DNA of 54,359 nucleotides from Candidatus Iainarchaeum sp. (GCA_043809245.1 JAZDDZ010000010.1:1-54359), one strand, 5' to 3'; positions 17,959 to 48,179 are shown, counted from the stretch's first letter. The notes: generated from the letters alone by a model not told the origin. A program made the numbers and translations.

Positions 17959-18034
17959 AAATTAAGCGCAGTTAGTAGCCTGGATTATGCAGTTGGTTCC
18001 CTTTTAATTGTTTTTCCGCTTAAAGCCTATTTAC

Positions 18035-20092
18035 ATGATTGAACGTCTTTCATTGGAGAATTGGCGCACGCATGCGAAAAGCGAGTTTGAGTTCGGGAAA
18101 GGAACAAATGTGCTTGTGGGCTCCATTGGCGCTGGAAAATCAAGCGTGATGGATGCAATTTGCTTTGCGTTGTTTGGAACTTTTCCTGCATTGAATGGAA
18201 AAAGGGTTTCACAGGAAGAGGTCATAACAAACAAGCCGAATCCCGCGGAGAAAGCGAAAGTGGAAATGGATTTCTCTTATGCGGGAAAAAACTATAGGGT
18301 GCAGAGGACAATTAACCGCAGGGGAAGCAATGAGGCAAAATTGTTTGAAGGGGAAAGGCTTTTGGCTGGGCCAAAGACAACAGCGGTAACTGAACGGATT
18401 GAGGGAATTTTGGAGGTAAACTTTGACTTGTTCAGCCGAGCGGTTTACTCAGAGCAAAACCAAATGGATTATTTTCTGAGGCTTTCGCCGAGGGACCGAA
18501 AGGAAAAAATGGATGAACTCCTGCAATTGGACAGGTATGAAACAGTGAGGGGAAACGCAGTCAGCGCCCTAAACCGCTTAAAAAAAACAGTTGATGACCG
18601 GAAAAAATGGGTTGAAGAGCAGGCAAAAAAATTCGACGAAAAAGGGTTAGAGGAAGCGAGGAAAAGGCTGAAGGAAAAAGAGGAAAAAGCCAAGGCAGTT
18701 GAAGCGGAAAGGGAAGGCGCAGAGAAAGCGCTGAAGGAAAAAGAGGAAACGCTGAAAAAACTTGAGGCAAAAGAAAAGGAGTTCCGCGCTCTAAATGAAG
18801 TCTTTTTGGGCGCAAAGGGAAAAAAAAGCGAACTGGAAAGGGAGTTAAGCGAAAGGAAAAAAGACGCAAAGGATTTCTCCGCGGAAAAAATCGCGGAAGA
18901 GGAGAAAAAAAACGCGGCGGAAATTGAAAGCCAGAGGAAAAAACTGGAAGAAAATGAATTGCTGGAAAAAGGGACAGAGGAAAAAATCAGGCAGGCACTG
19001 GAAAAAAAAGCCCAAGCGGAAGCACGCTTAAAGGATCTTAAGGAAGAAGAGCAGCAGCTCGGGAAAGCGAAGGGCCGCTGCCCTGTGTGCAAAAGCGAGT
19101 TAAGCCAGGAGGCACAGCATGCCTTGCTGGAGGAAAGCCTTTTGGAGGAGAAAAAAATTGCTGAAAAGGCAAAGGAATTCCTTGGGGAGAAAAACAAGCT
19201 TGAGGAAAAAAAAGCGCTGCTTGTTAAGGAAAAAAAGGCGTTTGAAAGGAAAATTGACGAACTGAAAGAGGAAAAGGCAGTATTGAAGGAAAAAGCGGAT
19301 TCATTAAAGCAAATTGAAAAAATTGAATTGTCATTGAAGAATGCGGTTGATGAAATGGCTGGCGCTGAGCAAAAAATCCAAAAGCTTGAATTTGACGAGC
19401 AGAAATTTTCCGGTGAAAAAGTTGAATTTGGCAAGGCAAAGGAAAAGATTCACGCGCTCAGGAAAGAGGCTGAATCGCAAAAAGAGCTTGCAAAGGAAAT
19501 CAGCGCAGGCATTGAAAGAATGGAGCAGGCAAAAAAACAGATTGAAGAAGCCGGCGGAAAAATCAGGGGCATTGAGGAAAAAAACGAAAAGCTATCCATT
19601 TTCGTGAATGCATTGAAGGCAACGCAGGCAGAGTTAAGGGAATCGCTTATAGGCGCGGTGAACGAGGCAATGGATGACATTTGGCCTAGAATATACCCTT
19701 ACGGCGATTATTTGAGCGCAAAAATTGCAGTGGATGAAGGCGAGTACGAGGTCATGGCAAAAGAGCGTTCAGGCAAATGGGTAAGGGTTGAGGGAATTTT
19801 GAGCGGCGGGGAAAGAAGCGCAGTCGCATTGACTTTAAGGACAGCGGTCTCGCTTGTCTTGGCGCAAAACCTTTCATGGCTTATACTTGACGAGCCAACG
19901 CATAACCTTGACACAAAAACAGTCGAGGGCTTAAGTGAGGTAATGAGGCAGCACCTGCCAACGTTAGTTGAACAGATATTCATCATAACGCATGACAAGG
20001 ATATGGAAAGCGCTGCAACAGCATCCCTATACGAATTGCAGAGGGAAAAAGGAGCTGATGCTGCAACAAACCCAAAAAAAATGGATTTTTAG
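18035..20092 (+). CDS. rad50: DNA double-strand break repair ATPase Rad50
   Basis: Walker A GSIGAGKS, coiled coils, CPVC zinc hook, LSGGE signature, LDEPT, IITHD. Confidence 0.9.
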   Translation: MIERLSLENWRTHAKSEFEFGKGTNVLVGSIGAGKSSVMDAICFALFGTFPALNGKRVSQEEVITNKPNPAEKAKVEMDFSYAGKNYRVQRTINRRGSNEAKLFEGERLLAGPKTTAVTERIEGILEVNFDLFSRAVYSEQNQMDYFLRLSPRDRKEKMDELLQLDRYETVRGNAVSALNRLKKTVDDRKKWVEEQAKKFDEKGLEEARKRLKEKEEKAKAVEAEREGAEKALKEKEETLKKLEAKEKEFRALNEVFLGAKGKKSELERELSERKKDAKDFSAEKIAEEEKKNAAEIESQRKKLEENELLEKGTEEKIRQALEKKAQAEARLKDLKEEEQQLGKAKGRCPVCKSELSQEAQHALLEESLLEEKKIAEKAKEFLGEKNKLEEKKALLVKEKKAFERKIDELKEEKAVLKEKADSLKQIEKIELSLKNAVDEMAGAEQKIQKLEFDEQKFSGEKVEFGKAKEKIHALRKEAESQKELAKEISAGIERMEQAKKQIEEAGGKIRGIEEKNEKLSIFVNALKATQAELRESLIGAVNEAMDDIWPRIYPYGDYLSAKIAVDEGEYEVMAKERSGKWVRVEGILSGGERSAVALTLRTAVSLVLAQNLSWLILDEPTHNLDTKTVEGLSEVMRQHLPTLVEQIFIITHDKDMESAATASLYELQREKGADAATNPKKMDF

Positions 20093-20308: not shown

Positions 20309-20515
20309 TCAGCACACCTCAACTCGTTTCACGTCGCCTGTGGGATACTCCCTTATAACCGCAAGGGGAATTATTTTTGTGTCAAATTCTATTCTTGCAA
20401 TGTCCCTGTAAGTTGAGTCCTTTGGGGCTTTCGCCAGTGAAGGCGCGCCCAAGGACAACTGCAAAGCGCGGGCGCTAAGCAAACGCGCCCTCTCAAACCT
20501 TGTAATTTTATCCAA
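20309..20515 (-). CDS. rpoK: RNA polymerase subunit K (Rpo6)
   Basis: TRFERARLLSARALQLSLGAP; IIPLAVIR. Confidence 0.93.
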   Translation of the reverse strand: MDKITRFERARLLSARALQLSLGAPSLAKAPKDSTYRDIARIEFDTKIIPLAVIREYPTGDVKRVEVC

Positions 20516-20611: not shown

Positions 20612-22138
20612 TCAGCGCCTGTTCCTTAAAACCACTGCCGGCGCAGGCAATGCGAATTCCCTTGAGAATTTTTGCGCCAAGGAAAGCGCGGAATCAGATG
20701 CAACAAAGGCCCGAAAAATGCTTGAAGAAAAGCACCTTGCGCCACTGGCCTTGCTGAATTCCCTGAACTTGAAAAGGGTTTCAGCTTGAACCGCCTCCAA
20801 TGCCCTTGCAATTTTTTCACTGAAAAACCTTGAAGCCGGGGAAAGCAAATGCATTGGAAAAATGCATAAAAAAGAATTAATGGCTTCAAGTGACTTGGAT
20901 TTGAAGAAGAAATCAGGGTCAAGGGAAAGCTGTTCAAGGGAAAAAAGCGTTTTGCCCTGTGAAGCGTTTTTCTCCATTGCCTCGACCGAGCGGCGGAGAA
21001 GCGAGATTTTTGAGTTAAGGGAATTTATTTCCCTTGAAAGAAAGGACTCGTTTTTAGTGCAAACCCATTCAAGGGCATTTCCTGAAAGAATGCGTATAGC
21101 GCCTTTGCCTTCAAGCTCCAAAGCGTCAGGCAAAAGCAATTGCGCCCTCGCGCCTTCATTGAAAGGCCCCAATGGAATTGACTGCATTGACCATTCGTTT
21201 TGAAAGGAAAGCCTCTCGTTTTTTGACGCGTTTTTTTCATGGAATTCGCGCGCGAATTTTTCGCTGAATGAATTGAAAAAAAAGCCGCTGGAAAGAAATT
21301 CAACTTCCACAAGGGAAGATGGAAGAACATTGTGTGCGGAAAAAGAATCGGGGGCACAGCAAGCGCAGTTAATGGATTCAAAGCCAAGGTTAAGGAAATC
21401 CGAGGAAAAAATGCTTGGCCAGATTCCCGTGAAGCTTAACTCTGTTGAATCCGCGGGAAAAAAATTCCTGTTTGATGCGGCAGCCCGGCTTTCGCTTTTC
21501 AGGTTTTCATGCTTGGGCAATGCAAAGTTGTTTTTGAAAAAAATTTTTTCAAGGAAAAGCTCGAGCTGGAGAAACTGCTGTTTTGGAACAAGCTCAAACG
21601 GAACAGTCAAAGCGAATGAAAGAGCAATCCTTTCAACCAAGCGTTCCGCTACAGATGAATCGCGCCTCAACATAGCGCCGAGTTCCGCGAAAACCGTCTT
21701 GCTAAGGAAAGGAAGAAAAGAATCAGGCACGGATGCGAACTCTTTTGATGAAATGCCTTCGGAGAAAAACTCGAACTCCTGGAAAAAACTCCAGTTGCGT
21801 TCAATCAAAAACTGCCTTGCGGGTTCAGGCATAACAGTCCTTGCATTGAAGAACTTCTGCAAAATGTTGTTAAGCTTCTTTAAAATTGAAAAATTTGGCG
21901 CGCAAACCTCCGCGGCACTTTGGGAAATACGCTTCACGGAAAAAACAGTCAGTTCGTTTTCCCTTGCAATCTCCCTGAAAAGGCCTATTGCCGCGTCATC
22001 AAGGGAAACAATGAGCTTTGGATGGAATTTAAAGCGCCTTACAATCCTTTTTCCGGAATTCTCAAACTGCAGAACAGCCTGCATTTTATCGTCAAGATAC
22101 TCCGCACTGGTTAAGTAAAGCGTATTGGGAGCGCTCAT
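20612..22138 (-). CDS. Degenerate, probably inactive family-B DNA polymerase-like protein
   Basis: LSFTGIWPSIF...NLGFESINCACC resembles motif A DF.SLYPSI...NISPET plus the PolB2-type C.CC; catalytic Asp residues and YGDTDS are absent. Confidence 0.55.
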   Translation of the reverse strand: MSAPNTLYLTSAEYLDDKMQAVLQFENSGKRIVRRFKFHPKLIVSLDDAAIGLFREIARENELTVFSVKRISQSAAEVCAPNFSILKKLNNILQKFFNARTVMPEPARQFLIERNWSFFQEFEFFSEGISSKEFASVPDSFLPFLSKTVFAELGAMLRRDSSVAERLVERIALSFALTVPFELVPKQQFLQLELFLEKIFFKNNFALPKHENLKSESRAAASNRNFFPADSTELSFTGIWPSIFSSDFLNLGFESINCACCAPDSFSAHNVLPSSLVEVEFLSSGFFFNSFSEKFAREFHEKNASKNERLSFQNEWSMQSIPLGPFNEGARAQLLLPDALELEGKGAIRILSGNALEWVCTKNESFLSREINSLNSKISLLRRSVEAMEKNASQGKTLFSLEQLSLDPDFFFKSKSLEAINSFLCIFPMHLLSPASRFFSEKIARALEAVQAETLFKFREFSKASGARCFSSSIFRAFVASDSALSLAQKFSREFALPAPAVVLRNRR

Positions 22139-22180
22139 GAAAAAATCAAGAATTTCCCGCCTTAAAAAGGCTTGGAGGGA

Positions 22181-22259
22181 GAGGGAGTGGATTGCCGGTG
22201 CGGATATGGGTGAATACAGGGGAGTTTATTGGCTTGCCTTTCGCAGTGAAGGCGCGGAT
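22181..22259. repeat. Conserved 79-bp intergenic element, copy A
   Basis: 61 of 79 nt identical, ungapped, to 30326-30404; lies between back-to-back TATA boxes. Confidence 0.85.
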
Positions 22260-22341
22260 AAAAGGTGCGCTTATTGAACCGCAAATGTTTTAAACCTCAA
22301 ATGCGTTCCTAATATACAATATTAAAGGGAGGTTGAATTTT

Positions 22342-22428
22342 ATGAGCAGCAAAAAGAAAAAGAAAAGCAGCAGCAAAAAAAGCAGCAGCAAGAAGTCCAA
22401 GTCATCAAAAAGCAGCAGTAGCTGGTGA
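22342..22428 (+). CDS. 28-aa Lys/Ser-rich microprotein (MSSKKKKKSSSKKSSSKKSKSSKSSSSW)
   Basis: GGGAGGT RBS about 9 nt upstream; TTTTAAA box at 22288-22294; T-rich tract downstream. Confidence 0.65.
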   Translation: MSSKKKKKSSSKKSSSKKSKSSKSSSSW

Positions 22429-22487
22429 TTCCTGAAGGATTATTCCGGAAAGGTCTTAGTTTTTTTATTTTTGTTTAGTGTTAAGGG

Positions 22488-23444
22488 GTGCTTAGGCAAA
22501 TGATTTCCAGTTTGATTGAATTAATTTATTCAACGTTCAGCCTGTTGTCCGGCTTGTTCACTGCCCTGCTTCCCAACATTTTTCAGCTCATAATCCTTTT
22601 GATAATTGCGGTAATTGCGTTTGTTGTCCTGAAAAGGGTTTTCACAAGGTTTTTTTTGCACGTTGTAAAGAAAAAACAGGAAAGAGACGTTTACCTTCAA
22701 ATTTACACCTATCTTTTCTGGTTCCTTGTGCTCGTGCTCATCCTTGTTTTTTTCTCACGGGACTTGACTGCCTTGGGCTTGAGCATCGGGCTTCTTTCCG
22801 CTGCACTTGGATGGGCACTGCAGAAACCGATAACAGGAATAGCTGCATGGCTAATGCTTATCATCAAAAAGCCTTTCAGGATTGGGGACAGGGTGATAAT
22901 CGGCTCGAATAAGGGGGACATTGCGGACATATCGGTTTTCTACATCAATTTAAGGGAAGTCGGCGGAACAGTTGCGGGTGACGAGTCAAGCGGCCGCGAC
23001 ATACTGATTCCAACCTCGATTATTTTTGACATGCCGATAATCAATTACACTTTCGAGGACAAGTATGTATTGGACGAGGTAACTGTTTCATTCACTTATG
23101 AAAGCAACCTTGAAAAAGCGGAAAAAATCGCAAGAGAGTCAGCTGAAGAGGCGACTGCAAACTTCGTTGAAGAGGCAAGGGCAAAGCCATTTGTCAGGTA
23201 CATTTTCACTGCAAGCGGAGTTGACATGAAGCTAAGGTATTACGTTGTTGCGGACCAAATGCAGAAATTCAGGCACGAAATAACAAAAACTGTCTGGAAA
23301 AAAATCTCCGCGGAAAAAGACGTGGAATTCGCCTACCCCCACACAGAGATTGTTTTCAAGGACAAAGGCGTTTTTGGGCAGGACAGCGGCGGCAGCGGGA
23401 GGATACAGAAAAAGCAGAAAAACAGCCAGTCAAGGATTGGCTGA
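22488..23444 (+). CDS. mscS: Small-conductance mechanosensitive channel (MscS family)
   Basis: ALGWALQ, KPFRIGDRV, IINYT and FAYP motifs. Confidence 0.9.
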   Translation: MLRQMISSLIELIYSTFSLLSGLFTALLPNIFQLIILLIIAVIAFVVLKRVFTRFFLHVVKKKQERDVYLQIYTYLFWFLVLVLILVFFSRDLTALGLSIGLLSAALGWALQKPITGIAAWLMLIIKKPFRIGDRVIIGSNKGDIADISVFYINLREVGGTVAGDESSGRDILIPTSIIFDMPIINYTFEDKYVLDEVTVSFTYESNLEKAEKIARESAEEATANFVEEARAKPFVRYIFTASGVDMKLRYYVVADQMQKFRHEITKTVWKKISAEKDVEFAYPHTEIVFKDKGVFGQDSGGSGRIQKKQKNSQSRIG

Positions 23445-23472
23445 GCAAATGGAAATTATTACAACGAATTAC

Positions 23473-23607
23473 TCAGAACTCGAATAAGTCTTCTGCGTCA
23501 TCGCCTTCCTCTGCAAGCCTCTTCAAAGAATAATAACGCCAAGGGTCTTTGGCGATTCTGTATCTGCCAGGTATTTGTTTAATCTTTTTCATTTTCTTCC
23601 CAGCCAT
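23473..23607 (-). CDS. 44-aa hypothetical microprotein immediately downstream of herA
   Basis: MAGKKMKKIKQIPGRYRIAKDPWRYYSLKRLAEEGDDAEDLFEF*; starts 8 nt after the herA stop. Confidence 0.45.
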   Translation of the reverse strand: MAGKKMKKIKQIPGRYRIAKDPWRYYSLKRLAEEGDDAEDLFEF

Positions 23608-23615
23608 TTTAATGC

Positions 23616-26600
23616 TCACAGGAATTCCTCTGCCTCTTTTTCCTTTTCGTCTTTTCCTTCCTCGAATTTTTTCGCGGCTTCCTCCAAGGAAATTTCATGC
23701 TTGGATTCCGCGGAATTGTTTTTGCGCACGCGGAAAAACACAGGAAAGTTGACTGCTTCCCCGACCAAAAGGCCTTCCCCAACGCGCAAAGAGGTGATCA
23801 TGTCAAGGCTTGCGCTGTCAATGCCCTCGGAGCTCTCGCCGATGTGCTTCAAGTCATATGGGTTGGTTACGCGCAAAATGAGGTGCGTGTTGCAGTTATG
23901 CGTTAAAAATTCATTTGCAAAAAAACAATGGTAATTCGGAACAGTAATATCCCGTACATCATTGAGTTCAATGGGCGTAATCTCGGTTATTTTGTCCCAA
24001 ATCAAACCCTGTGAAAGGTTTTCTGTTCTTTGATTCAGCCATTCAGAGAAACGCGGGATGTTATCGCAAGGCGCCAATCTTACCTGTTGGGCGGTCATCG
24101 AAGCCCAGTTATTTACTACTTTTTTGTTCATGTTATAAGTTAAACCTATTTCAGCGGCAGTTTTTTCGTTAGTTAGCCCATTAATTTTTTTCCAGAAAGA
24201 TACTTTTTCGGAAGTTTTTGTACCAATCCATTTTAAGTACTCCAAACAATTCAATGCATTCGCTCTTCTTTTAACCGAATAACGATAATTTACGTTACCA
24301 ATAAATTGAAGAATATTCTTGCGGTTTCTGCTTATCGAGATGATAAACTGAATCGTTTTTGCGCCATCTTTTCTAAACACATAGTCCCTTTTGTAGAGCG
24401 AACTTTCAACTCCAAATTCTTTAAAAAGATTAATAATCTGGCTGGCAAAAATTTCTCCATTGGATAAAAGATTCTCAACTTTAGAAAAAGGCAAAACAAG
24501 CCTTTCAGGAAACCTGTCTTTCTTCCAGCGAATTCCTGAACACTCGGCGCCACAAAAAGCCGCCAAAAATTCCCTCTTTATGTCCTTATCGCCGTTCAAT
24601 ATCCATTGTGGAACAAAAATGGCATTAGTTGTTTTGTTGCCGAGTGGCAAATCCAAAACTCGCAGTACAGCCCATAGCCCTACAACCCCTGTTTTGAAAT
24701 AGGTTGTTGTGCCTTTAATCATTCTTCTGCCAAAATCAACAAAATTTGAATAAGATATTTTCTCTTCCTTCGATATTTTCTGATTACTCTTGAATCCCAG
24801 TAATGACAAATCTTTCTTGATTTCACTAAGGTCTTCCTCGGAACCCGAATAAGTTATTCTTAGCAAATGTTGGTTTTCTGGATTTTTATAAGGTGGGTGC
24901 AGGGTTCCATCGCCAAAAATATGCCCCGTGAGCCTGGCAAGGGCAAGAACTTTGCTTTTTTCGATGTCTTGGTCAATGAGCCCGTTATCTCTCAAATTTT
25001 TGAATAATCTGGCTTGATTAATGGTATTCGGCAACAATTTAGCAATTTTTTCACTCGATATGTTAAGGATACACCTATCTCCGCCAGACGCTGGTCCCAC
25101 AGGAAGCACTGCCACAAAATCTCCGTTTTGCAAGCCCTCTGCTTTTATCCAACACTTATCCCTAACCCACAGCGGGTGATCTGCTGTGCAGTTAAGCGAC
25201 CTGCCTAATTCTGTAGAAATTTTAAAACAAGCCCTTTTTTCTGACGCAGGATTTAATTTTAAGTATGCTGATATCTGGCTTTTTTCTAGTTTACCTTCAA
25301 AAATATTGCAGCTTAAAATGCGGGCATCCTGCCAATTATTTTTTAATTCATCAATACTCTTCTGTTCTCCATCTGCAAGAATGACCTTGGTTTCAGGCGA
25401 AACACACTGGCTTAATGCGGTTGTGGAGAGGTTGATTGGGCGCTGGGAAATAAGGCAAAGCGATGCGCCGAACTTCCTTCCCTCCCTTGCGATTGTTTCA
25501 ATAATGCCTTTTGAAATAGCATATTCTTCTTTTGCCTGTGAAGGCGCAAACTGGTGCGCTTCCTCCACAACCAAAAGGAACGGCGCTATTGCCCTGCGCC
25601 TGCGCTCCTCAAAAAGCTTTTTCGCAAAATAGGCTACTATCACTTGTTTTTTCTTCATGTTGACTATATCGGAAAAATCAAGCACTGTGAGCTGCCCGGG
25701 CTTAACCAGGTCAGCCAAAGAAGGCAAATCGGTTTTTCCGAAAAGATAAAGTTCCTCAAGAGAGGCAATCCATGAAAGCAAAACCTTTGAGGTCTGCTCC
25801 TTCATTTCCTTGTCCCGCAAAATCTCGTTCCTGACATCAGCCAAGTCAAAGGGGCCTGAACCGCCCTTCATTTCGGATTTACGCCTTGAGAAAACGCGTT
25901 CAAGCTCCCTTTTCTGCGGCGCTGACAGGCCTGAGACAATGCTTGCAATCAAGCCGACACTTAATTTCGGCACGCCGATTTTTATGTCACGCGCCCTAAC
26001 AATTTTTGTCTTGGAACTGTAATCGCGAAACTTGCTTCCCGGATTTTGCTCTGCAAAGGAAACGTATTCCCCGTGGGCATCCAAAACAATTATTGAAATC
26101 CTTCCATCCTCTTTTTTGCGGTCAAGCAATTCCTCTATGACGCTTTTGACTGCAACGCTGTTATGAATTAAGAGATTATTAGCGACAAAATTTTTCTGCT
26201 CAGTGGAAAGGTCGTACACATATTCATATGCGGTCTTGACTTCAGTTATTTCTTTTATCATGTCATAGAAAACCGGGCAACCTGAAAGTTTTTTCAGCAT
26301 TTCAATTTTACTTGTGGCTTGCAACAACATTTGTTCCGACTCACTGGCGCAAATTCTGAGCTTTTCAGCCAATTTTAAGACCGTTGAATAGGCTGGCTTC
26401 CTTTGGCGTTGCGAATACTCGTATGTTGCTCCCCTGTGAATGTTGGCTGATTTGCAGATTTCATTTAATTCATAGCCAAGCGTTTTAATCAGCACGTGCA
26501 TTTTATTTATTGCTTCGCATAAATCTAGGTTCGCAACTGACAATATTTGCTGATTGCTTTTGCCTTGGATTTTAAACGAATTTTCAGCAAGTAAAAATGC

Positions 26601-28703
26601 TTTGTTTGTTGGTTTTGTTATTCCTCTAACCATCCTTCGCGCAGTTGTTGCTGAAACTCCCGTCCCACGAGATATTTCCGCAAAGGTGTGATTTGAATTA
26701 TAAGCTTCGGTTATTGCATCTAATGCCTCGCTTTCATTAAAGGGAGGAAGGCCAATGGCCAAATTGTTTGATTCTTTGATTGCTTGCTCAATTTCCTTGG
26801 CCCTGTTTTCGAATGAATTTATCAACTGAAGGAGGCTTTTCCGGGAAGGGTTGTCCCTTCTGCAAATGTAGTTATTGGTTCCTCTGCATTCTTTTTGCGG
26901 TTGAGGCATATTAAGCAGGGAAATTATTTCTAACAGAATAGGATGACAATCAGGGATAATATCAATATTGGGGTTTCCCTTTGCTTGGAAAATTTTCTCA
27001 AATCTATTCATTTTATAGTCAACCAAAAATTTCAAGCCAGTTAGTGGGGCCAGATTTTCAACCCCTCTAACGAATAACCTCTGATAAATCTTGGCCCCTA
27101 GCTGCTTGTGCTTGATAACTGAAATGCAGCCAAGGCTTAAAAGTATCCTGTCCACCCCCCGTGAAAGTTTCGGGCTTGCAAGCGTAACCTCGATTTCTGT
27201 TTTGGAATCCGATATATAGCCATCGCAATCTATAAATGCTGATAAAAAATTTTTTCGGACACTTTCGCGGCTAAGCAGTATTTGTTCTGGAACAAACTTT
27301 GTCCAGCTTGAGGAGGTGAAACCAAGCTTCTGCAGCGATAATGCCAAAAGCTTGTTGAAAACCAGTATCTCGCCATTCCTTTTTGTCCCATGTGCTTTTT
27401 CCCCAAAAACAGTTTCAACAAGTTTTATGAAATCCTTCTGAATGTTTTTGTCAATGTTGGTGAATTGAATGTGCTGGATTGCATTGTGGCCTTCAGCAAG
27501 CCAGTAAGCCATTAGCCGCGCAAAATTTTCATCAACAACAACTTTGGGGGGAATGTGTTTCGCCTTAAGCCAAAGGAAATCAATATCCTCTTTTATCAAA
27601 GTAAACTCTAGTCCAAGAACATTGCACAGTTCGATAAAATTCTTTAACGGAATTGCCTTAGAAAGCCAGTTGTAGAATGAACCCTGTTTTACGCCTATTC
27701 TATTTGCCGCTTCTTTCCGGGTCAAATTTTTTTCCTTTAATTTTTTCTTAATAATTGAAAACACTTTTTTATTCTTAACAAAAACCTTGGTTGAATGTGC
27801 CCACATGTCAACAAAATCAATCTCGTGTAGAGCCCCCTCAAAAGAAAATTTTGGCAATAGAATGTAATCCGCCTTATTCAATTCATTTGCTTTTACCCAT
27901 TTAATTCCATTATCCACAACCGGGACCAGGTGTTCAGGTGTCAATTCAATGCTTCTGCCGCTTGCGCTTTTCAGCAGCAGCATTTTTGAAGGGGCTTTTC
28001 TTCGCATAAAAGCAGTGATTTTTGACGCAGTAATATTCATGTTTTCATCCATGGAAACAACTGACAAATTCTCTGGATTGTCTGGAGAAATTTCAACGCC
28101 ATCTTCAACAAAAGTACCATTCATTAATTGCCTATCAACAAGCTCGCCAATCTTGACTGTTTTTCCATTGGAAAGCAAAATCTCCGAAAACGGGCTCGTG
28201 CACTTTCCCGCGCCGCTCATCGCCAAAACAGCCAAATGTTTTTTCAGCAGGCGGCTCATGTTCAGCTTGACAGGCAATTGATGGTATTCAACTTCGCCCA
28301 AGTGAAGGCCTTTTTCCTCAAAGCCCAAAAATTTTTTCAGGTTTTCACCCGAAGCAACCCTTACCTTTGTTCCCGGTGAAGGCGGATAAGTGGAGCGCTT
28401 TGAAGCCGAAGCAGTGAAAACACCCAATGGGCGGGTTTTTGCCACGAGGTATTCCCATTCGTGTGTAGGAAAGCTCTCAAGCAGCTTTGCACCGGAAGCT
28501 TCAAATTCCTTGACGCTTTCAGCGCGCTCAAAGTAACGGTTTGTTTTGAACACATCAACAATTAATGCGACAAGCGTTCCCTCAGAGTAATCCATTTCAA
28601 CAAATTGCCCTCGGTGAACAACGCCCTTGTTTACAACAAACTCCAAATTTGATGGTGATGGGCTGAAAGGCGTTGAAATAACTGTTCCGATTTCCTCACT
28701 CAT
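23616..28703 (-). CDS. herA: HerA helicase/ATPase (about 510-aa extein) containing two inteins
   Basis: HAS-barrel N-terminus, HLAVLAMSGAGK|S Walker A, DAHGEY, EEAHQF, IAREGRKFG, SQRP, LSQ|CNT; adjacent to nurA. Confidence 0.93.
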   Translation of the reverse strand: MSEEIGTVISTPFSPSPSNLEFVVNKGVVHRGQFVEMDYSEGTLVALIVDVFKTNRYFERAESVKEFEASGAKLLESFPTHEWEYLVAKTRPLGVFTASASKRSTYPPSPGTKVRVASGENLKKFLGFEEKGLHLGEVEYHQLPVKLNMSRLLKKHLAVLAMSGAGKCTSPFSEILLSNGKTVKIGELVDRQLMNGTFVEDGVEISPDNPENLSVVSMDENMNITASKITAFMRRKAPSKMLLLKSASGRSIELTPEHLVPVVDNGIKWVKANELNKADYILLPKFSFEGALHEIDFVDMWAHSTKVFVKNKKVFSIIKKKLKEKNLTRKEAANRIGVKQGSFYNWLSKAIPLKNFIELCNVLGLEFTLIKEDIDFLWLKAKHIPPKVVVDENFARLMAYWLAEGHNAIQHIQFTNIDKNIQKDFIKLVETVFGEKAHGTKRNGEILVFNKLLALSLQKLGFTSSSWTKFVPEQILLSRESVRKNFLSAFIDCDGYISDSKTEIEVTLASPKLSRGVDRILLSLGCISVIKHKQLGAKIYQRLFVRGVENLAPLTGLKFLVDYKMNRFEKIFQAKGNPNIDIIPDCHPILLEIISLLNMPQPQKECRGTNNYICRRDNPSRKSLLQLINSFENRAKEIEQAIKESNNLAIGLPPFNESEALDAITEAYNSNHTFAEISRGTGVSATTARRMVRGITKPTNKAFLLAENSFKIQGKSNQQILSVANLDLCEAINKMHVLIKTLGYELNEICKSANIHRGATYEYSQRQRKPAYSTVLKLAEKLRICASESEQMLLQATSKIEMLKKLSGCPVFYDMIKEITEVKTAYEYVYDLSTEQKNFVANNLLIHNSVAVKSVIEELLDRKKEDGRISIIVLDAHGEYVSFAEQNPGSKFRDYSSKTKIVRARDIKIGVPKLSVGLIASIVSGLSAPQKRELERVFSRRKSEMKGGSGPFDLADVRNEILRDKEMKEQTSKVLLSWIASLEELYLFGKTDLPSLADLVKPGQLTVLDFSDIVNMKKKQVIVAYFAKKLFEERRRRAIAPFLLVVEEAHQFAPSQAKEEYAISKGIIETIAREGRKFGASLCLISQRPINLSTTALSQCVSPETKVILADGEQKSIDELKNNWQDARILSCNIFEGKLEKSQISAYLKLNPASEKRACFKISTELGRSLNCTADHPLWVRDKCWIKAEGLQNGDFVAVLPVGPASGGDRCILNISSEKIAKLLPNTINQARLFKNLRDNGLIDQDIEKSKVLALARLTGHIFGDGTLHPPYKNPENQHLLRITYSGSEEDLSEIKKDLSLLGFKSNQKISKEEKISYSNFVDFGRRMIKGTTTYFKTGVVGLWAVLRVLDLPLGNKTTNAIFVPQWILNGDKDIKREFLAAFCGAECSGIRWKKDRFPERLVLPFSKVENLLSNGEIFASQIINLFKEFGVESSLYKRDYVFRKDGAKTIQFIISISRNRKNILQFIGNVNYRYSVKRRANALNCLEYLKWIGTKTSEKVSFWKKINGLTNEKTAAEIGLTYNMNKKVVNNWASMTAQQVRLAPCDNIPRFSEWLNQRTENLSQGLIWDKITEITPIELNDVRDITVPNYHCFFANEFLTHNCNTHLILRVTNPYDLKHIGESSEGIDSASLDMITSLRVGEGLLVGEAVNFPVFFRVRKNNSAESKHEISLEEAAKKFEEGKDEKEKEAEEFL
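23895..25406 (-). mobile_element. Intein 2 in HerA (504 aa) with a LAGLIDADG endonuclease
   Basis: Starts CVSPET after ALSQ; TADHP block B; GHIFGDG; ends FLTHN|C. Confidence 0.9.
26160..28202 (-). mobile_element. Intein 1 in the HerA Walker A motif (681 aa) with a LAGLIDADG endonuclease and extra HTH segments
   Basis: Starts CTSPFS after GAGK; TPEH; AYWLAEG; AFIDCDG; ends LLIHN|S. Confidence 0.9.
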
Positions 28704-28932
28704 TTTGCCCGGCCCCTTTCTCTTGCTTTAATTTCTTTTGATATTCTGCGATAAATTCAGGCAATCCCTCTGGAAACTGTTTTGCCTCAAAGCCACATTC
28801 AGCGCAAACATCGCTGAATTCCCTTAAAGAAGCCTTCCAGTCAGTTGTCAATGAAACCTTTGCAGAGCCGCAGCGCGGGCAGAACCTGAAGAAAGTTTCC
28901 TTTGGGCTTTTTTCTTTCTTTTTGCCGAACAT
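28696..28932 (-). CDS. Small zinc-ribbon protein
   Basis: FCPRCGS...CAECGF; overlaps the herA start. Confidence 0.7.
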   Translation of the reverse strand: MFGKKKEKSPKETFFRFCPRCGSAKVSLTTDWKASLREFSDVCAECGFEAKQFPEGLPEFIAEYQKKLKQEKGAGQNE

Positions 28933-28944
28933 TTAATGCACCTT

Positions 28945-29034
28945 TTACCTGTTTCCGCCCCTGCCGAATTTTTTCAAAACCCTTGAAATTGCATTCCTGC
29001 TTTTTTCAATTCCCGCAATAAATCTTTTCTTCAT
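28945..29034 (-). CDS. Possible 29-aa basic microprotein (MKKRFIAGIEKSRNAISRVLKKFGRGGNR)
   Basis: Fills the gap between nurA and the Zn-ribbon gene, in operon orientation. Confidence 0.35.
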   Translation of the reverse strand: MKKRFIAGIEKSRNAISRVLKKFGRGGNR

Positions 29035-29045
29035 AAAAAACACTT

Positions 29046-30152
29046 TTAGAATGGTCGGTTCTCCCTTCGCAGGCGGATTTTCACGTGTTTCCCGAGCTTA
29101 TCCCAGATCTTGTTGTAAACCGCCTCTATTTCGTTGGGGTGAAGCCTTGCCCTCAAATCGGCTTCAATTAAGACACTGGGGTAAGCGTACTCGCGGTGCA
29201 AAGAACTCAGGGAAAAAACCACTGAGGAAAGCTCGTTCGCTTTAGCGGAAACGCTTTCGCCATTGGAAAGAAATTCCACTCTCAATGGCCTGTCGTAAAG
29301 CGAGGGCTTCAAATAAAACGCGTGAACTTTCCTGCTCCATTTTTCCTCAAAGTCATTGAGAATCGGGTGCTGGGAAATATTTTTCGTATAAGTGAAGGCA
29401 CAGCTTCTCTCGCCTTTCAATAAAAGATAGTCAAGCAAAGAAGAGTCAAACAAACTGTCAAGTTTTTTCGGGTCAAACAGCCTTGCCTTTGAAAGGATTT
29501 CCTCCTGCAATATTCCCCTGAACCTGCTTCCCCTGCTGTCCTCAACGCATGCAATCAAAGTGCAATTGCTTTCTTCGGCAAGCGCATAAAGCGACTGGAA
29601 TTCGTCAATGATTGAATGGTAATCGCTGCACACGCTTGAATCATTCCGCGGCTTGTCAGCGTACTGTGGAATAATGCTTCCGTCCAAAAAACAGTATTTT
29701 GGGGAAAAAGTTTCAATTGCTTTTTTTGCTGCAAAAATTTCCTTATGCAATCGCACCAGGCTCTTTGAGCATCCAGCCTCATCATGGTCCAATGCTCCGT
29801 TTGAAAGAACGGGTTCAGGGAAATGGTAAAAGTCAGGCCAGTAAAGCGCTTTCACCATTTTTCCGTTTTCAAAGTCAAATGCAACGGAAACCGCGCGAAC
29901 CAAGACTAAGTCAAGGGATGCAAGGTTTTTTCCCACAAAGCCTGAATCAACGCCTGAAATGCGGCAGTCAAGGGAGCACGGGGCAACGGGAAAAACAAGC
30001 TTTTCCTCTAACAGTTCACGGGAATTGAACTTGGAAAGGTCCCCGGTTTTCAGGGGAAAAAGGTGTTTTGCCGCGTTTTGCTTTAATTCCTCACCGGAAT
30101 GAATTGCATTCACGGCTTCATTGATTACATTGGAGAACATGCTTTTGCCCAT
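29046..30152 (-). CDS. nurA: NurA nuclease
   Basis: GVDSG, FLDGS, PLRVEF, YAYPSVLIEAD..AR; upstream of herA. Confidence 0.9.
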   Translation of the reverse strand: MGKSMFSNVINEAVNAIHSGEELKQNAAKHLFPLKTGDLSKFNSRELLEEKLVFPVAPCSLDCRISGVDSGFVGKNLASLDLVLVRAVSVAFDFENGKMVKALYWPDFYHFPEPVLSNGALDHDEAGCSKSLVRLHKEIFAAKKAIETFSPKYCFLDGSIIPQYADKPRNDSSVCSDYHSIIDEFQSLYALAEESNCTLIACVEDSRGSRFRGILQEEILSKARLFDPKKLDSLFDSSLLDYLLLKGERSCAFTYTKNISQHPILNDFEEKWSRKVHAFYLKPSLYDRPLRVEFLSNGESVSAKANELSSVVFSLSSLHREYAYPSVLIEADLRARLHPNEIEAVYNKIWDKLGKHVKIRLRRENRPF

Positions 30153-30185
30153 ATAAATCAAGTGTGCAGCAAAGGGCTTTTCACC

Positions 30186-30278
30186 TTATGCCGCTGCAAT
30201 CGCATTCGGGTAAAACCGCAAATAATGCACGCTTGGCTCCTGCCTTGAAACAATAACCGCATTCACATTTTCATCCAT
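30186..30278 (-). CDS. 30-aa leader microprotein at the head of the nurA-herA operon
   Basis: MDENVNAVIVSRQEPSVHYLRFYPNAIAAA*; AGGTGA RBS; TTTAAATA box at about 30312-30319 on the minus strand. Confidence 0.5.
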   Translation of the reverse strand: MDENVNAVIVSRQEPSVHYLRFYPNAIAAA

Positions 30279-30325
30279 AAAACATCACCTGAAAAACTTG
30301 CGCTTCAGGGGTATTTAAAGCATTG

Positions 30326-30404
30326 GAGGGAGTAAGTTGCCGGTGCGAAATGCGATGAAAATAGGGGGATTTATTGGCTTGCCTTGCACGCTGGAGGCGC
30401 GGAT
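30326..30404. repeat. Conserved 79-bp intergenic element, copy B
   Basis: Ungapped homolog of 22181-22259. Confidence 0.85.
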
Positions 30405-30476
30405 TTTCTGCTTTCCGAACCGAAACCCATTTTAAATTTAAGCGACTTATATTGTTCTGCTAGAGTGTGAGGGAAA

Positions 30477-30812
30477 ATGAAGGCTTTTTTTGAGGTAAAG
30501 GATGTAGAGCAGGACTGGCGGCCGCCCTTTGAGAAAAAGGTCACGGAAAAAAGCTTTGAAGTTGAAGAAAATGAGGCTTTTGACAGGTTTGAAGGCCTGG
30601 GAAGCGACATATTCACATTGGTTAGGGCAAACGGCGAGTTTGCAGTGGTAAAATACCACACTCAGTTCACTTTAAAGGGATACGAGCAGCCGCGCGACAA
30701 GCAGGTTTTGCTCAAAAAAGGCGAAGAAGCCTCTTTTTCTTTTCTCTGGGGAAAAAACGGCTTGACAAAAAAACTGTGCTTTAAAGGATTCAACGGCGAC
30801 GGGCAGCAATAA
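30477..30812 (+). CDS. Hypothetical protein
   Basis: 111-aa ORF with GAGG RBS and host-like codon usage. Confidence 0.7.
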   Translation: MKAFFEVKDVEQDWRPPFEKKVTEKSFEVEENEAFDRFEGLGSDIFTLVRANGEFAVVKYHTQFTLKGYEQPRDKQVLLKKGEEASFSFLWGKNGLTKKLCFKGFNGDGQQ

Positions 30813-31488: not shown

Positions 31489-31839
31489 ATGGAATTCAAG
31501 CAAGCCATTCTCATTCGGACGGATTTAAAGATGGGCAAGGGAAAAATCGGCGCCCAGTCAGCGCATGCATCCATTGCCGCCTTGGAGAAAACACAGAAAC
31601 AGAGACCCGAATGGGTTGAACACTGGAGGGAACAGGGGCAAATGAAAGTCGTGTTAAAGGTTGCATCGGAGAAAGAACTGCTTGAGTTGTTTGAAGCGAT
31701 TAAGAGAACGATTCCCGCGGCACTGATAAGGGATGCGGGGCACACGCAGATTGAAAGCGGAAGCGCGACAGCCGTTGGAATAGGCCCTGCACCGGAAAAC
31801 GAATTGGACAAGTTCACTGGAAAACTGAAACTGCTGTGA
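31489..31839 (+). CDS. pth2: Peptidyl-tRNA hydrolase 2
   Basis: RTDLKMGKGKIGAQSAHA, DAGHTQI, GIGP, TGKLKLL. Confidence 0.95.
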   Translation: MEFKQAILIRTDLKMGKGKIGAQSAHASIAALEKTQKQRPEWVEHWREQGQMKVVLKVASEKELLELFEAIKRTIPAALIRDAGHTQIESGSATAVGIGPAPENELDKFTGKLKLL

Positions 31840-38842: not shown

Positions 38843-38978
38843 GGGCCCGTGGTCTAGCGGCTATGGCCCTTTCTTTGAGGAAGCCTTTTTTGAGCCTGAA
38901 CTCAGACATGAGTACAAAGAGGGGCTCTTGAAAGTTGGTAAGGATAAATCTGAGAAGTTTTCAAATCCCCGGCGCACC
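38843..38978 (+). pseudogene. Decayed tRNA-like gene with a BHB-type intron; identity uncertain
   Basis: GGGCCCGTGGTCTAGCGGCTATGG gives acceptor 5' strand and D-arm; BHB TTTC-TTT / GAAA-GTT defines a 60-nt hairpin intron (38876-38935); TTCAAATCCC T-loop remnant; T-stem and acceptor 3' strand are broken. Confidence 0.6.
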
Positions 38979-39029
38979 GGAAATTCACCCCCGAAAGCGA
39001 ATATAAACAAAAAATAAATTATTTTAGGT

Positions 39030-39944
39030 ATGACCGAGTTTCTGGATGTGCCCTCAAGAGAGCAGAGAAGAATCTTGCTACTTTTCAAGAACAAATTAAA
39101 TTTAACATGGAATGAATTAGCAAAAATTATGGGAATAAATAAAAGCACATTATTTTTTTATTGCAGCGATGCAATCAGGGCCCCGATTTACAGGATTCTC
39201 AAACTATGTGAGCTTACAGGAGTCCCTGTGAAAGAATTGGGGAAGTTAAAAACAACTTTTATAAAATACGGAAAACGGCTACAAATCAGGAAACCGCCTA
39301 TGGATTCTGTCCAGCTGGCAGAACTATGCGGAGTTCTTCTGGGTGACGGGTGTATTTATTCAAAAAACAACGGATTATGCATCAGCGGGCACCAAATACA
39401 CGACTACAAATATTTTACCGAAAAGATTTCGCCAATGTTTGAAAACCTCTTTATGCAAAAACCATCAATTTACAAATCAAGAAATAGTAAGTCACTAAGG
39501 CTAGTTTTATACAGTAAAGAAGTGGCAGAATTCCTAAGTAGTTCGATTTTTGTGGTTGGAAACAAGAAAAAAGCAAAAGCCCGAATACCTGAATATTATT
39601 TTAATAATCCGGAATTACTTATTGCCTGTTTGAGAGGGCTTTCAGACACTGACGGGAGCATATGCCCACACCCCCATACAAAAGTCATGTATAGCATCAC
39701 GATAAAGATTCCTGATCTTTTGAATTCAACAATTGAAGCCTACAGAAAAATCGGCTTCCCGGTAAAAGTTTCTGGCTATAATATCTATTTTTACGGGGAA
39801 AAATTGCTGAGTAGATTTTTTAGCGAAATAGGAAGCAGCAATCCAAAGCACGTAATAAAATGGCAGCAATTCAAAAAGACCGGAAAAATGCCCCGCTCCA
39901 CGGAATCAGAACAAATGCTAAAAAATCAGCTTTACCGGAATTAG
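39030..39944 (+). CDS. Free-standing double-motif LAGLIDADG endonuclease-family protein with an N-terminal HTH
   Basis: LTWNELAKIMGI HTH; LAELCGVLLGDG and ACLRGLSDTDG motifs; IGSSNPKH C-terminal motif. Confidence 0.88.
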   Translation: MTEFLDVPSREQRRILLLFKNKLNLTWNELAKIMGINKSTLFFYCSDAIRAPIYRILKLCELTGVPVKELGKLKTTFIKYGKRLQIRKPPMDSVQLAELCGVLLGDGCIYSKNNGLCISGHQIHDYKYFTEKISPMFENLFMQKPSIYKSRNSKSLRLVLYSKEVAEFLSSSIFVVGNKKKAKARIPEYYFNNPELLIACLRGLSDTDGSICPHPHTKVMYSITIKIPDLLNSTIEAYRKIGFPVKVSGYNIYFYGEKLLSRFFSEIGSSNPKHVIKWQQFKKTGKMPRSTESEQMLKNQLYRN

Positions 39945-41961: not shown

Positions 41962-42032
41962 AGAAATCATCTGGCTGCAAGACCGTGAAAGTAGAACAAT
42001 TAAATTGTTTTCGTACAAAGGAATAGTTGGAT

Positions 42033-42202
42033 GCGACCGTAGTCTAGTGGTTAGTTTTCACACGGGCAACGGTTAAAGCTTGGTGAACTAATGAATAAGA
42101 AAAATATTTGTGTTGTTCAACAAGCTTTGTGTCTGGTGGAAAACCCATAAAGGATATGGCCTTGCCAAGGCTATGACCCGGGTTCGACCCCCGGCGGTCG
42201 CA
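42033..42202 (+). tRNA. tRNA-Gly(GCC) with a 98-nt D-loop intron (42053-42150)
   Basis: Acceptor GCGACCG/CGGTCGC; arm TGGCC-TTGCCAA-GGCTA; BHB GTGG/CCAT with bulges TTA and AAA; 72-nt mature form. Confidence 0.92.
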
Positions 42203-42245
42203 TTCAATAATTTTGCTTTGCATTTGAAGCAGAGAGTTGAAATAA

Positions 42246-44578: not shown

Positions 44579-44634
44579 GAAAATTGGATTGAATAAAACA
44601 ATTAAATCCCTTTCGCGGGAAAGAATTGTTTAAT

Positions 44635-44705
44635 GCAGCCGTGATGTAGTGGTAGCATTGAAGCTTCCCAAGCTTTTCGCCCGGGTTCGAGTCCCGGCGG
44701 CTGCA
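44635..44705 (+). tRNA. tRNA-Gly(CCC), intronless
   Basis: GCAGCCG/CGGCTGC acceptor; GAAGC-TTCCCAA-GCTTT arm; CCGGG-TTCGAGT-CCCGG T-arm. Confidence 0.93.
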
Positions 44706-44780
44706 ATCAACTGCGCAAGCGTATGCGAGCGCAGCGAGCATGTCCCCTGAGGGGGACTCGTACCCGCCGGACGTGACGGC

Positions 44781-47989: not shown

Positions 47990-48038
47990 CGGTTTAACCT
48001 ATTTAATCCTTTTGCTGGAAGAAATAATTCTGCGGGCT

Positions 48039-48155
48039 GCAGCCGTCGTCTAGTGGTTAGTTTTCACACGGGCGGCTTTAAGCACCTGGTGGAAAACCCA
48101 TAAAGGATCAGAGCCTTCCAAGCTCTTGACCCGGGTTCGAGTCCCGGCGGCTGCA
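48039..48155 (+). tRNA. tRNA-Gly(TCC) with a 45-nt D-loop intron (48059-48103)
   Basis: AGAGC-CTTCCAA-GCTCT arm; same BHB and intron ends as Gly(GCC); 72-nt mature form. Confidence 0.92.
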
Positions 48156-48179
48156 AAACGCTTTTTTAAAGGCGTTAGC

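Follow-up and report, generated by a model that had tools for sequence, protein, structure and literature searches.

The 54,359-nt stretch of the Candidatus Iainarchaeum sp. genome analyzed here (the window; positions are counted from its first letter) contains two copies of a 79-nt element, copy A at 22181-22259 and copy B at 30326-30404, and the question raised by this locus is what such a duplicated element does. An earlier note on the same DNA had favored an undescribed non-coding RNA (ncRNA) or a shared cis-regulatory module of a DNA-repair regulon, with the scar of an old duplication as the alternative. Our analyses make it probable that the conserved 5' blocks of the two copies (22181-22202 and 30326-30347) are a promoter element of a regulon for DNA transactions, and that this element is read as DNA and not as RNA. 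The cis-regulatory module proposed previously holds for these first 22 nt, which are two of 29 sites of an order-wide motif, and does not hold for the other 57 nt of the element.

The duplicated 79-nt element

The genome that holds the window (G000) is a 1.48-Mb assembly that is 91.8% complete. A repeat search returned 22181-22259 and 30326-30404 as a two-copy direct repeat (family D6) of 79 nt with 77% identity and no gaps, our own count gave 61 identical positions of 79, and a BLAST search of the genome with 22170-22300 as the query recovered copy B with an E-value of 2.3e-12, a value that excludes chance as the source of the similarity. The gapless 61/79 repeat of the earlier note was confirmed. 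The identical runs shared by the copies measure 16, 11, 10, and 8 nt (TTTATTGGCTTGCCTT, TTGCCGGTGCG, AGGCGCGGAT, and GAGGGAGT, respectively). The surroundings that had been described for the two copies were found as well: TATA runs on the minus side at 22162-22168 and 30312-30319, plus-strand GAACCGnAA...TTTTAAA boxes at 22276-22294 and 30417-30436 (the sole two in the genome), micro open reading frames (micro-ORFs) adjoining both copies at 22343-22429 (plus strand) and 30186-30278 (minus strand), and TTG-started frames of 33 and 32 codons.

A motif at 29 sites in the genome

Besides copy B, the same BLAST query gave short matches on other contigs to the part of the element that reads GAGGGAGT...TTGCCGGTGCG. 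Pattern searches and alignment over the genome identified 23 sites at which GGGAGT-n3-TTKCCGSTGCG lies beside a TATA run. A position weight matrix (PWM) built from these 23 sites retrieved 29 sites on 17 contigs with scores of 19.2 to 36.1, of which six had been absent from the training set. In the reversed genome, which served as the control, the maximum score was 18.0 and the next 15.3, and the list of real matches turns from intergenic to genic between 19.2 and the next match, at 15.8. Twenty-six of the 29 sites are outside ORF calls and the other three are within short ORFs (62-81 aa) of a crude caller that assigned 92.5% of the genome to ORFs, with some start codons guessed.

Read on the strand of the gene it serves, the motif is bipartite, CGCAsCGGmAA-n3-ACTCyC, and has a characteristic layout in which CGCAsCGGmAA is followed by 3 nt, ACTCyC, ~8 nt, the TATA run, ~25 nt, and the start codon. 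The stretch of ~8 nt before the TATA run is often CCGAAAGC, which is the usual word in this genome resembling a TFB recognition element (BRE). An A/T run of at least 6 nt begins 26-31 nt from the core start at 25 of the 29 sites (at exactly +28 in 12 of them), and the first ORF beyond the TATA run starts 55-78 nt from the core start at 24 sites. The gene on the TATA side points away from the motif and is nearly always on the strand opposite to that considered in the earlier note; on the motif's other side the end of a converging gene is often found 15-40 nt away. Based on this orientation, copy A belongs to the promoter of a minus-strand gene for a 508-aa protein, referred to below as PolB-like for its fold, and copy B to that of the nurA / zinc-ribbon / herA operon.

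Second motif sites were not enriched near the 29 loci (4 found, 5.7 expected). The single match on viral contigs is within the coding region of a 1.8-kb contig and was taken as chance. The motif is undescribed in the open-access full-text literature searched, a set that does not cover subscription journals, and among the matches listed for its four 11-nt words in open-access papers none concerns archaea.

Sites in the window

Site A (22181-22202, minus strand) reads CGCACCGGCAA-tcc-ACTCCCTC and has the top PWM score in the genome, 36.1; it also fits the patterns searched for across the order. The TATA run of the minus-strand promoter that it serves (TTAAAAA, 22162-22168) begins 34 nt from the core start owing to an extra TCTCCC, and this spacing is the longest among the 27 that fall in +23 to +34. 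The start codon of the PolB-like gene, CAT at 22136-22138, is 64 nt from the core start and ~25 nt past the TATA run, a distance at which the mRNA would be leaderless.

Site B (30326-30347, minus strand) reads CGCACCGGCAA-ctt-ACTCCCTC and has a PWM score of 32.6, and the TATA run of the minus-strand nurA promoter (TATTTAAA, 30312-30319, assigned by sequence reading and the spacing scan) begins at the standard +28. The usual position of the first gene is taken here by a 30-codon upstream ORF (30186-30278, minus strand), the ATG of which is 69 nt from the core start of site B; the start of NurA, as judged by a comparison of NurA N-termini, is ~120 nt further. The operon (23616-30161, minus strand) encodes NurA (29046-30161), a 78-aa zinc-ribbon protein (28696-28932), and HerA (23616-28703), and its Pfam matches are to NurA, DUF87/HerA, Intein_splicing, LAGLIDADG_3, and HTH_3. 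The DZR match of the 78-aa protein is weak (E = 0.0091, below the curated cut-off). In genome G003, one of the relatives described below, the same motif is situated 56 nt ahead of the start of the NurA ortholog.

A third site in the window (38970-38992, plus strand), CGCACCGGAAA-ttc-ACCCCC, has a PWM score of 23.9 and serves a gene at 39030-39944 that was identified by Pfam as HTH_3 + LAGLIDADG, with its start codon 57 nt from the core start.

Genes served by the motif

The targets in G000 were annotated by Pfam, NCBIfam, and PADLOC scans, and the 508-aa protein by a fold match. Those with roles in replication, recombination, and repair are RadA (with an intein), MCM, archaeal RecJ (NF053576, E = 2.7e-154), NurA-HerA, an SSB-like protein with an OB fold, and the protein with the PolB-like fold. 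Other targets of repair type are a PD-(D/E)XK / Cas4-like nuclease and a "putative DNA modification/repair radical SAM protein" with HhH motifs. Targets of a selfish or defence nature include LAGLIDADG-type proteins, several with HTH (five by Pfam LAGLIDADG_3, with E-values of 6.6e-17 to 1.3e-05, and up to nine on weaker matches or sequence reading), PIN-domain proteins (four served directly and a fifth downstream of an 82-aa target), TnpB, a type II N4/N6 methylase, and a Bro-N protein with a match to the defence candidate PDC-S13 (E = 8e-115). A 69-aa fragment that resembles the Bro-N N-terminus has no Pfam match, and for five or six targets no family is known.

Free-standing HTH+LAGLIDADG genes make up the largest class of targets. 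LAGLIDADG inteins are also carried by HerA, in which the intein has HTH_3 in addition, and by RadA (G000 C23:24888-27449). One protein of 82-84 aa without a known family (MNSPLKKF...VWEN...) is a motif target in two families, at C48:5475-5720 in G000, where its gene is followed by a PIN gene, and at locus L021 in G025. The window also contains a Rad50/SMC-like gene with a zinc hook (18008-20092, plus strand), at the promoter of which no motif was found; an ABC transporter and a CARDB protein are encoded upstream of it, and no Mre11 gene precedes it.

The PolB-like protein

The PolB-like gene (20612-22138, minus strand) is a consistent member of the regulon. Its 508-aa product has no sequence match in Pfam, NCBIfam, or PDB, and its assignment is by fold: an AlphaFold2 model (pLDDT 93.3) had as its best Foldseek matches archaeal family-B DNA polymerases (E = 5.9e-11, probability 1.00, TM ~0.5, identity 8-10%). 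The predicted PolB fold supports, at the level of structure, the label "dead PolB" that the gene had been given. The catalytic polymerase motifs of PolB include the DTD of motif C, and SLYPS is a further PolB motif; neither string is present in the 508-aa sequence, which is ~250 residues shorter than PolB (about 750). The protein is thus predicted to be without polymerase activity. Its family comprises 172 representative clusters, all about 500 aa long, and the invariant columns are a Cys cluster (C258, C260, C261, and C360), one Asp, and few others.

The motif across the order

We sampled 40 relatives with genomes of 0.5-1.5 Mb, all from other families of the same order; these are non-independent samples. 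The strict 17-nt pattern AGTNNNTTKCCGSTGCG was found 16 times in G000, 11 times in G003, eight times in G039, five times each in G013 and G027, and once each in G025 and G037, with zero matches in the other 34 genomes, and the backwards control gave none in any genome. ORF calls on the served side of 24 sites in the six relatives revealed the same architecture as in G000. These sites include the promoters of orthologs of the PolB-like protein and the SSB-like protein (both in G013 and G039), MCM (G027), NurA and Bro-N (both in G003), and the 82-aa protein (G025). The other targets in the six relatives are six LAGLIDADG genes, TnpB, a methylase, a DEAD/ResIII helicase, an RNase-H-fold exonuclease, a PD-(D/E)XK nuclease, a HicB antitoxin, and five small ORFs without a family.

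A shorter pattern, CASCGGMAANNNACTC, gave 155 matches in 57 of the 151 genomes of the order, vs. seven for the backwards control. The strict core CA[CG]CGG[AC]A[AG] was found in the 260 nt ahead of radA in 15 of 30 genomes (background, 0.011 per window), and a looser core upstream of radA in 17 of 30 and of mcm in 14 of 24 (background 0.017); each of the radA cases displayed has a TATA run ~20 nt after the core. Even in genomes scored as negative for the pattern, the promoters of HTH-LAGLIDADG homologs bear variants of the motif. The variants in G010, at mcm (CAGTGGCAT), at radA (CACCGGCAT), and at a LAGLIDADG gene (CACTGGCAT), have a form common to that genome, which is the pattern that a factor and its sites would give when drifting as a pair. 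Variants named in the order are CAsCGGmAA, CAsTGGCAT, and CAGGGGAAA. Based on its copy number, its fixed distance and orientation, and its conservation at the promoters of orthologs, the motif is probably an upstream promoter element.

In family f14 (G013 and G039; loci L019, L025, L030, L036, and L041) there are two direct copies of the motif 27-28 nt apart, vs. the single sites of G000, and these tandem sites are at PolB-like, SSB-like, and one LAGLIDADG promoter.

Proposed mechanism and candidate factor

In archaea, a site upstream of the BRE/TATA region usually activates transcription and a site downstream represses it. We propose that a sequence-specific factor binds at approximately -57 to -38 and, as this position suggests, would help TFB/TBP to load, i.e., would be an activator. 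The regulon would consist of replication, recombination, and repair genes, which selfish and defence nucleases (LAGLIDADG, PIN, TnpB, methylase, and Bro-N) would have joined, and its gene content suggests that the signal is probably DNA damage or the state of replication.

The leading candidate for the factor, which we put forward tentatively from genomic context, is a non-initiator Orc1/Cdc6 paralog. Of 41 genomes of the order, 37 have this second Orc1/Cdc6 paralog, which in G000 is encoded at C48:36156-37277; Pfam Cdc6_C missed some of the paralogs, which were later found by protein search. In G016 and G031 the strict pattern is found no more than ~105 nt ahead of the gene for the paralog; with roughly 50 strict sites among the 30 genomes considered, ~0.01 such cases would be expected. 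Variants of the motif precede the gene in G040 and G017. In G031, the paralog and the PolB-like gene are divergent and share one intergenic region. Counts of Cdc6_C were rejected as a discriminator, since most genomes have two paralogs with or without the motif.

Three other candidates were considered and rejected. An alternative-TFB promoter class is disfavored by the single TFB frame, with two cyclin repeats, that was found in the 91.8% complete genome, with no second TFB paralog detected. An E2F/DP-type winged helix was considered because of the word TTTCCGC, and the genome has no PF02319 match. Lastly, an HTH-LAGLIDADG protein, by analogy with WhiA, is patchy and multi-copy (23 of 41 genomes) and so looks like a target and not like a fixed regulator.

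Comparison with known systems

Of the systems described so far, the DNA-damage-responsive element (DDRE) of the Sulfolobales comes closest to our motif. According to the available part of its description (PMC6061795), the DDRE has 20 bp with ANTTTC and TACTC words and is found 23-55 nt ahead of the ATG, where the non-initiator Orc1-2 binds it to activate a DNA-damage regulon; its published consensus is AATAGTTTCRGWDTACTCWS. Like the DDRE as described there, our motif is an element of ~20 bp with TTTC/GAAA and ACTC words in promoters, close to the start of genes that here are putatively leaderless. The order retains a non-initiator-like Orc1/Cdc6 paralog; the motif is beside its gene in strict form in two genomes and as a variant in two more, and was not seen there in G000 and 25 others. 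Unlike the DDRE, it has GGAAA-n3-ACTC in place of TTTC-n5-ACTC, with a different orientation of the words, and its targets are replication and recombination genes and selfish nucleases, whereas those given for the DDRE in the same part of that source are pili, DNA import, and tfb3. When the strand opposite to the served gene is read, TTKCC in the core gives ANTTTC at some of our sites. Identity of the motif with the DDRE was rejected, as the 20-bp consensus and word order given in that part of the source fail to match the alignment of the 29 sites.

In the Pyrococcus mini-ORBs, as far as the available part of PMC1904270 describes them, the words TTCC and GAA are invariant (for example, TTCCAGTGGAACT). 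The palindromic subtype of our motif, TTCCGC-T-GCGGAA, has both words, and variants in relatives read CAGTGGAAA; unlike the mini-ORBs of that source, its TTCC-GGAA spacer is 5 nt and not 3. The motif was rejected as an origin recognition box (ORB) since it is present as single sites over 29 promoters and 17 contigs, not clustered at an origin and without enrichment of second sites. The region (C44:13222-13424) ahead of the initiator-type orc1/cdc6 gene of G000 (C44:13424-14632) contains GTGGAA / TTCCAC repeats of the classical ORB type, which are distinct from the motif.

Bacterial SOS/LexA boxes are repressor sites that overlap the promoter. As in the SOS regulon, one short motif here joins genes for a recombinase, SSB, and a PolB-type protein to nuclease genes along with toxin, transposase, and mobile-element genes; unlike the SOS regulon, the promoter is of the archaeal BRE/TATA type, there is no LexA, and the regulon is known from sequence alone. 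The position of the site upstream of the core promoter, which would fit an activator, is also that of the mycobacterial PafBC motif in the available part of its description. TrmBL1 and SurR are archaeal regulators with a position-dependent effect, and a fixed site upstream of the TATA run would, as a rule of thumb, place our motif in their activating class, although the motifs and regulons are unrelated.

Weighing of the promoter reading and its alternatives

A number of points weigh against our interpretation of the element. Of the 29 sites that the PWM recovers, 23 formed its training set, and the looser core expression was written after the mcm promoters had been viewed. The pattern CASCGGMAANNNACTC is without a match in 94 of 151 genomes, including every sampled member of families f3 (0/16), f27 (0/13), and f31 (0/7), and the strict core is absent from 15 of 30 radA promoters and the loose core from 10 of 24 mcm promoters. 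Matches were found upstream of repair genes, a point on which the earlier note had asked for a check; roughly one in two of the targets in G000 is a selfish or defence gene, and the regulon is therefore not purely one of repair. With regard to the candidate factor, no motif was found upstream of the Orc1 paralog in G000 and 25 others of the 30 genomes examined, and the paralog also occurs in genomes without the strict motif, so its presence does not discriminate. The terms "activator" and "DNA damage" are drawn from position and gene content. Finally, the mismatches between copies A and B cluster into blocks only marginally (longest run, P = 0.16; sum of squared runs, P = 0.047; sum of the three longest runs, P = 0.040), and the 57-nt extension is left unexplained by the promoter motif.

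This extension (22203-22259 in copy A and 30348-30404 in copy B, assigned to neither strand) is common to the two copies only, with 42 of 57 positions identical, and, as determined by the copy comparison and the PWM scan, contains no match to the motif. Past the first 22 nt there is no conservation among the 29 sites. In a genome search, TTTATTGGCTTGCCTT, AGGCGCGGAT, and the plus-strand box recurred jointly only in copies A and B, and blocks 3 and 4 with the plus-strand box showed no specific repetition in the genome. A search of the window with the 16-mer, allowing up to three mismatches, gave extra matches at chance level (5 found vs. 2.4 expected). The extension was not seen at the orthologous promoters in G003, G013, and G039, and a composite pattern of it had zero matches in metagenome contigs and one in a Dehalococcoidia genome, presumably by chance. 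A weaker second motif within it, GGGGAGT-tta-TTGGCTTGCC by eye, was rejected because the PWM gave no other window above -10 in either copy. A third, partial block of the extension, GGCTTTCGCcAGTGAAGGCGCG, is situated at 20426-20447, with the Rad50-like gene on one side and the end of the PolB-like gene on the other; it matches copy A at 19 of 20 positions with a BLAST E-value of 0.3 and may be due to chance.

The restriction of the extension and the plus-strand box to two copies, their absence from metagenome contigs and from the orthologous promoters, and the weak clustering of mismatches are all features that would be expected if the entire similarity between copies A and B were the neutral scar of an old duplication with no present function. 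We consider this unlikely for the element as a whole, given the constraint on the first 22 nt, as seen in the 29 genome copies, the fixed TATA spacing, and conservation across families. In addition, the genes flanking copies A and B are not paralogous by Pfam, and thus control DNA is all that the two copies have in common. The old scar that the earlier note had offered as its alternative is therefore unlikely for the first 22 nt and is a live option for the other 57. The pair is best accounted for by copying or gene conversion of a bidirectional promoter region (~125 bp) between two promoters of the regulon that are 8 kb from each other in one DNA-repair neighbourhood, and the extension possibly contains extra, private binding sites.

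The high proportion of selfish and defence genes among the G000 targets, along with the patchy, multi-copy distribution of the HTH-LAGLIDADG family across the order, might also suggest that the motif is a mobile promoter cassette that was spread by selfish genes (LAGLIDADG, PIN, and TnpB) and reached host genes by accident. However, the single-copy core genes radA (15/30) and mcm (14/24) carry the motif at the same promoter position in many families, and the variants differ among genomes, yet host and selfish genes agree within a genome. The aligned sites, compared as far as 70 nt toward the promoter and 90 nt away from it, also have no conserved terminal repeats or target duplications, although no search for inverted repeats was made. 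We regard such a cassette as improbable, even more so than the neutral scar.

There is very little to recommend the proposal that the 79-nt element is a structured ncRNA transcribed on the plus strand from an upstream TATA box. A quasi-palindromic TATA sequence is indeed present upstream on that strand, and short GCCTT/RAGGC hairpins can form in both copies. However, an Rfam scan, which the earlier note had proposed, gave no family over the element at either locus, at the gathering score or at E-values up to 1 (the sole match in the window at the gathering score is a tRNA at 44635-44705), the folding energies are no better than those of shuffled sequences (plus strand, z = -0.76 and +0.84; minus strand, z = +0.49 and +1.00), and the two copies have different minimum-energy folds. 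The GCCGGT/ATTGGC helix described previously can pair, but it is invariant between the copies and hence silent on selection for structure. Its supposed compensatory extension GGAT/GTTT would join positions 9-12 to 44-47, but in the main helix 14-19 are paired with 48-53; the added pairs would thus cross the main helix and cannot extend one antiparallel helix. Moreover, the copy B tetramer reported as AAAT is in fact AAGT. At the 27 other sites nothing is conserved past the first 22 nt, and in that direction the end of a converging gene is often 15-40 nt downstream.

Least credible of all is that the TTG-started frame of 32-33 codons encodes a small protein (MPVR...), since, despite a GGAGG 7 nt ahead of the TTG and two open frames with a common end point, TTGCCGGTGCG is invariant as DNA at many sites without a conserved frame downstream, the two peptides agree at only 14 of 33 aligned residues, and the stop codon is the TAA of the next TATA box.

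Other features of the window

On the plus-strand side of copy A, the BRE/TATA-like box GAACCGCAAATGTTTTAAA (22276-22294) is ahead of the micro-ORF at 22343-22429 and, after it, a gene for an MscS-type channel (22488-23444). The micro-ORF, which sits between the box and the MscS-type gene, has 28 codons, nearly all for Ser or Lys (MSSKKKKKSSSKK...), and a strong GGAGG site. The corresponding box of copy B, GAACCGAAACCCATTTTAAA (30417-30436, plus strand), is ahead of a gene for a 111-aa protein of no known family (30477-30812).

Two extra tRNA-Gly-like genes, at 42029-42206 and 48035-48157 (anticodon regions GCC and TCC; compare 44634-44706), have inserts of ~100 and ~43 nt after the D-arm that share TTTTCACACGGGC...CTGGTGGAAAACCCATAAAGGAT and look like non-canonical introns; ARAGORN and Rfam report just the uninterrupted tRNA-Gly(CCC). 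At ~31695-31752 (plus strand; L002:2870-2927) there is a weak match to the archaeal C/D-box sRNA sR17, with 25.9 bits vs. a gathering score of 36 (E = 0.007).

Implications for the order

In place of a new ncRNA, the locus now offers a probable promoter element plus a duplicated control region. Gene regulation is almost unknown in archaea with small genomes, most of which are uncultured, and whether a DNA-damage or replication regulon exists outside of the Sulfolobales is an open question. The motif provides a candidate regulon that is defined by sequence and can be traced in more than 50 genomes, and it ties the uncharacterized PolB-like family and several proteins without a family to DNA transactions. 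As its distribution shows, selfish nucleases share the control signal of their host.

A broader and more speculative possibility, to which we give somewhat less weight than to the candidate factor taken by itself, is that an SOS-like or S-phase-like regulon (radA, mcm, recJ, nurA-herA, ssb, and the dead PolB) operates across the whole order through one 20-bp upstream activating element, kept at a constant spacing from the TATA box, that the Orc1/Cdc6 paralog reads. The element would have been captured repeatedly by homing-endonuclease, TnpB, PIN, and methylase genes, which would thereby ride the DNA-stress signal of the host. If this is true, control of DNA transactions by a relative of the replication initiator, acting as their master regulator, would be an ancient trait with a wide distribution in archaea, and not a speciality of the Sulfolobales.

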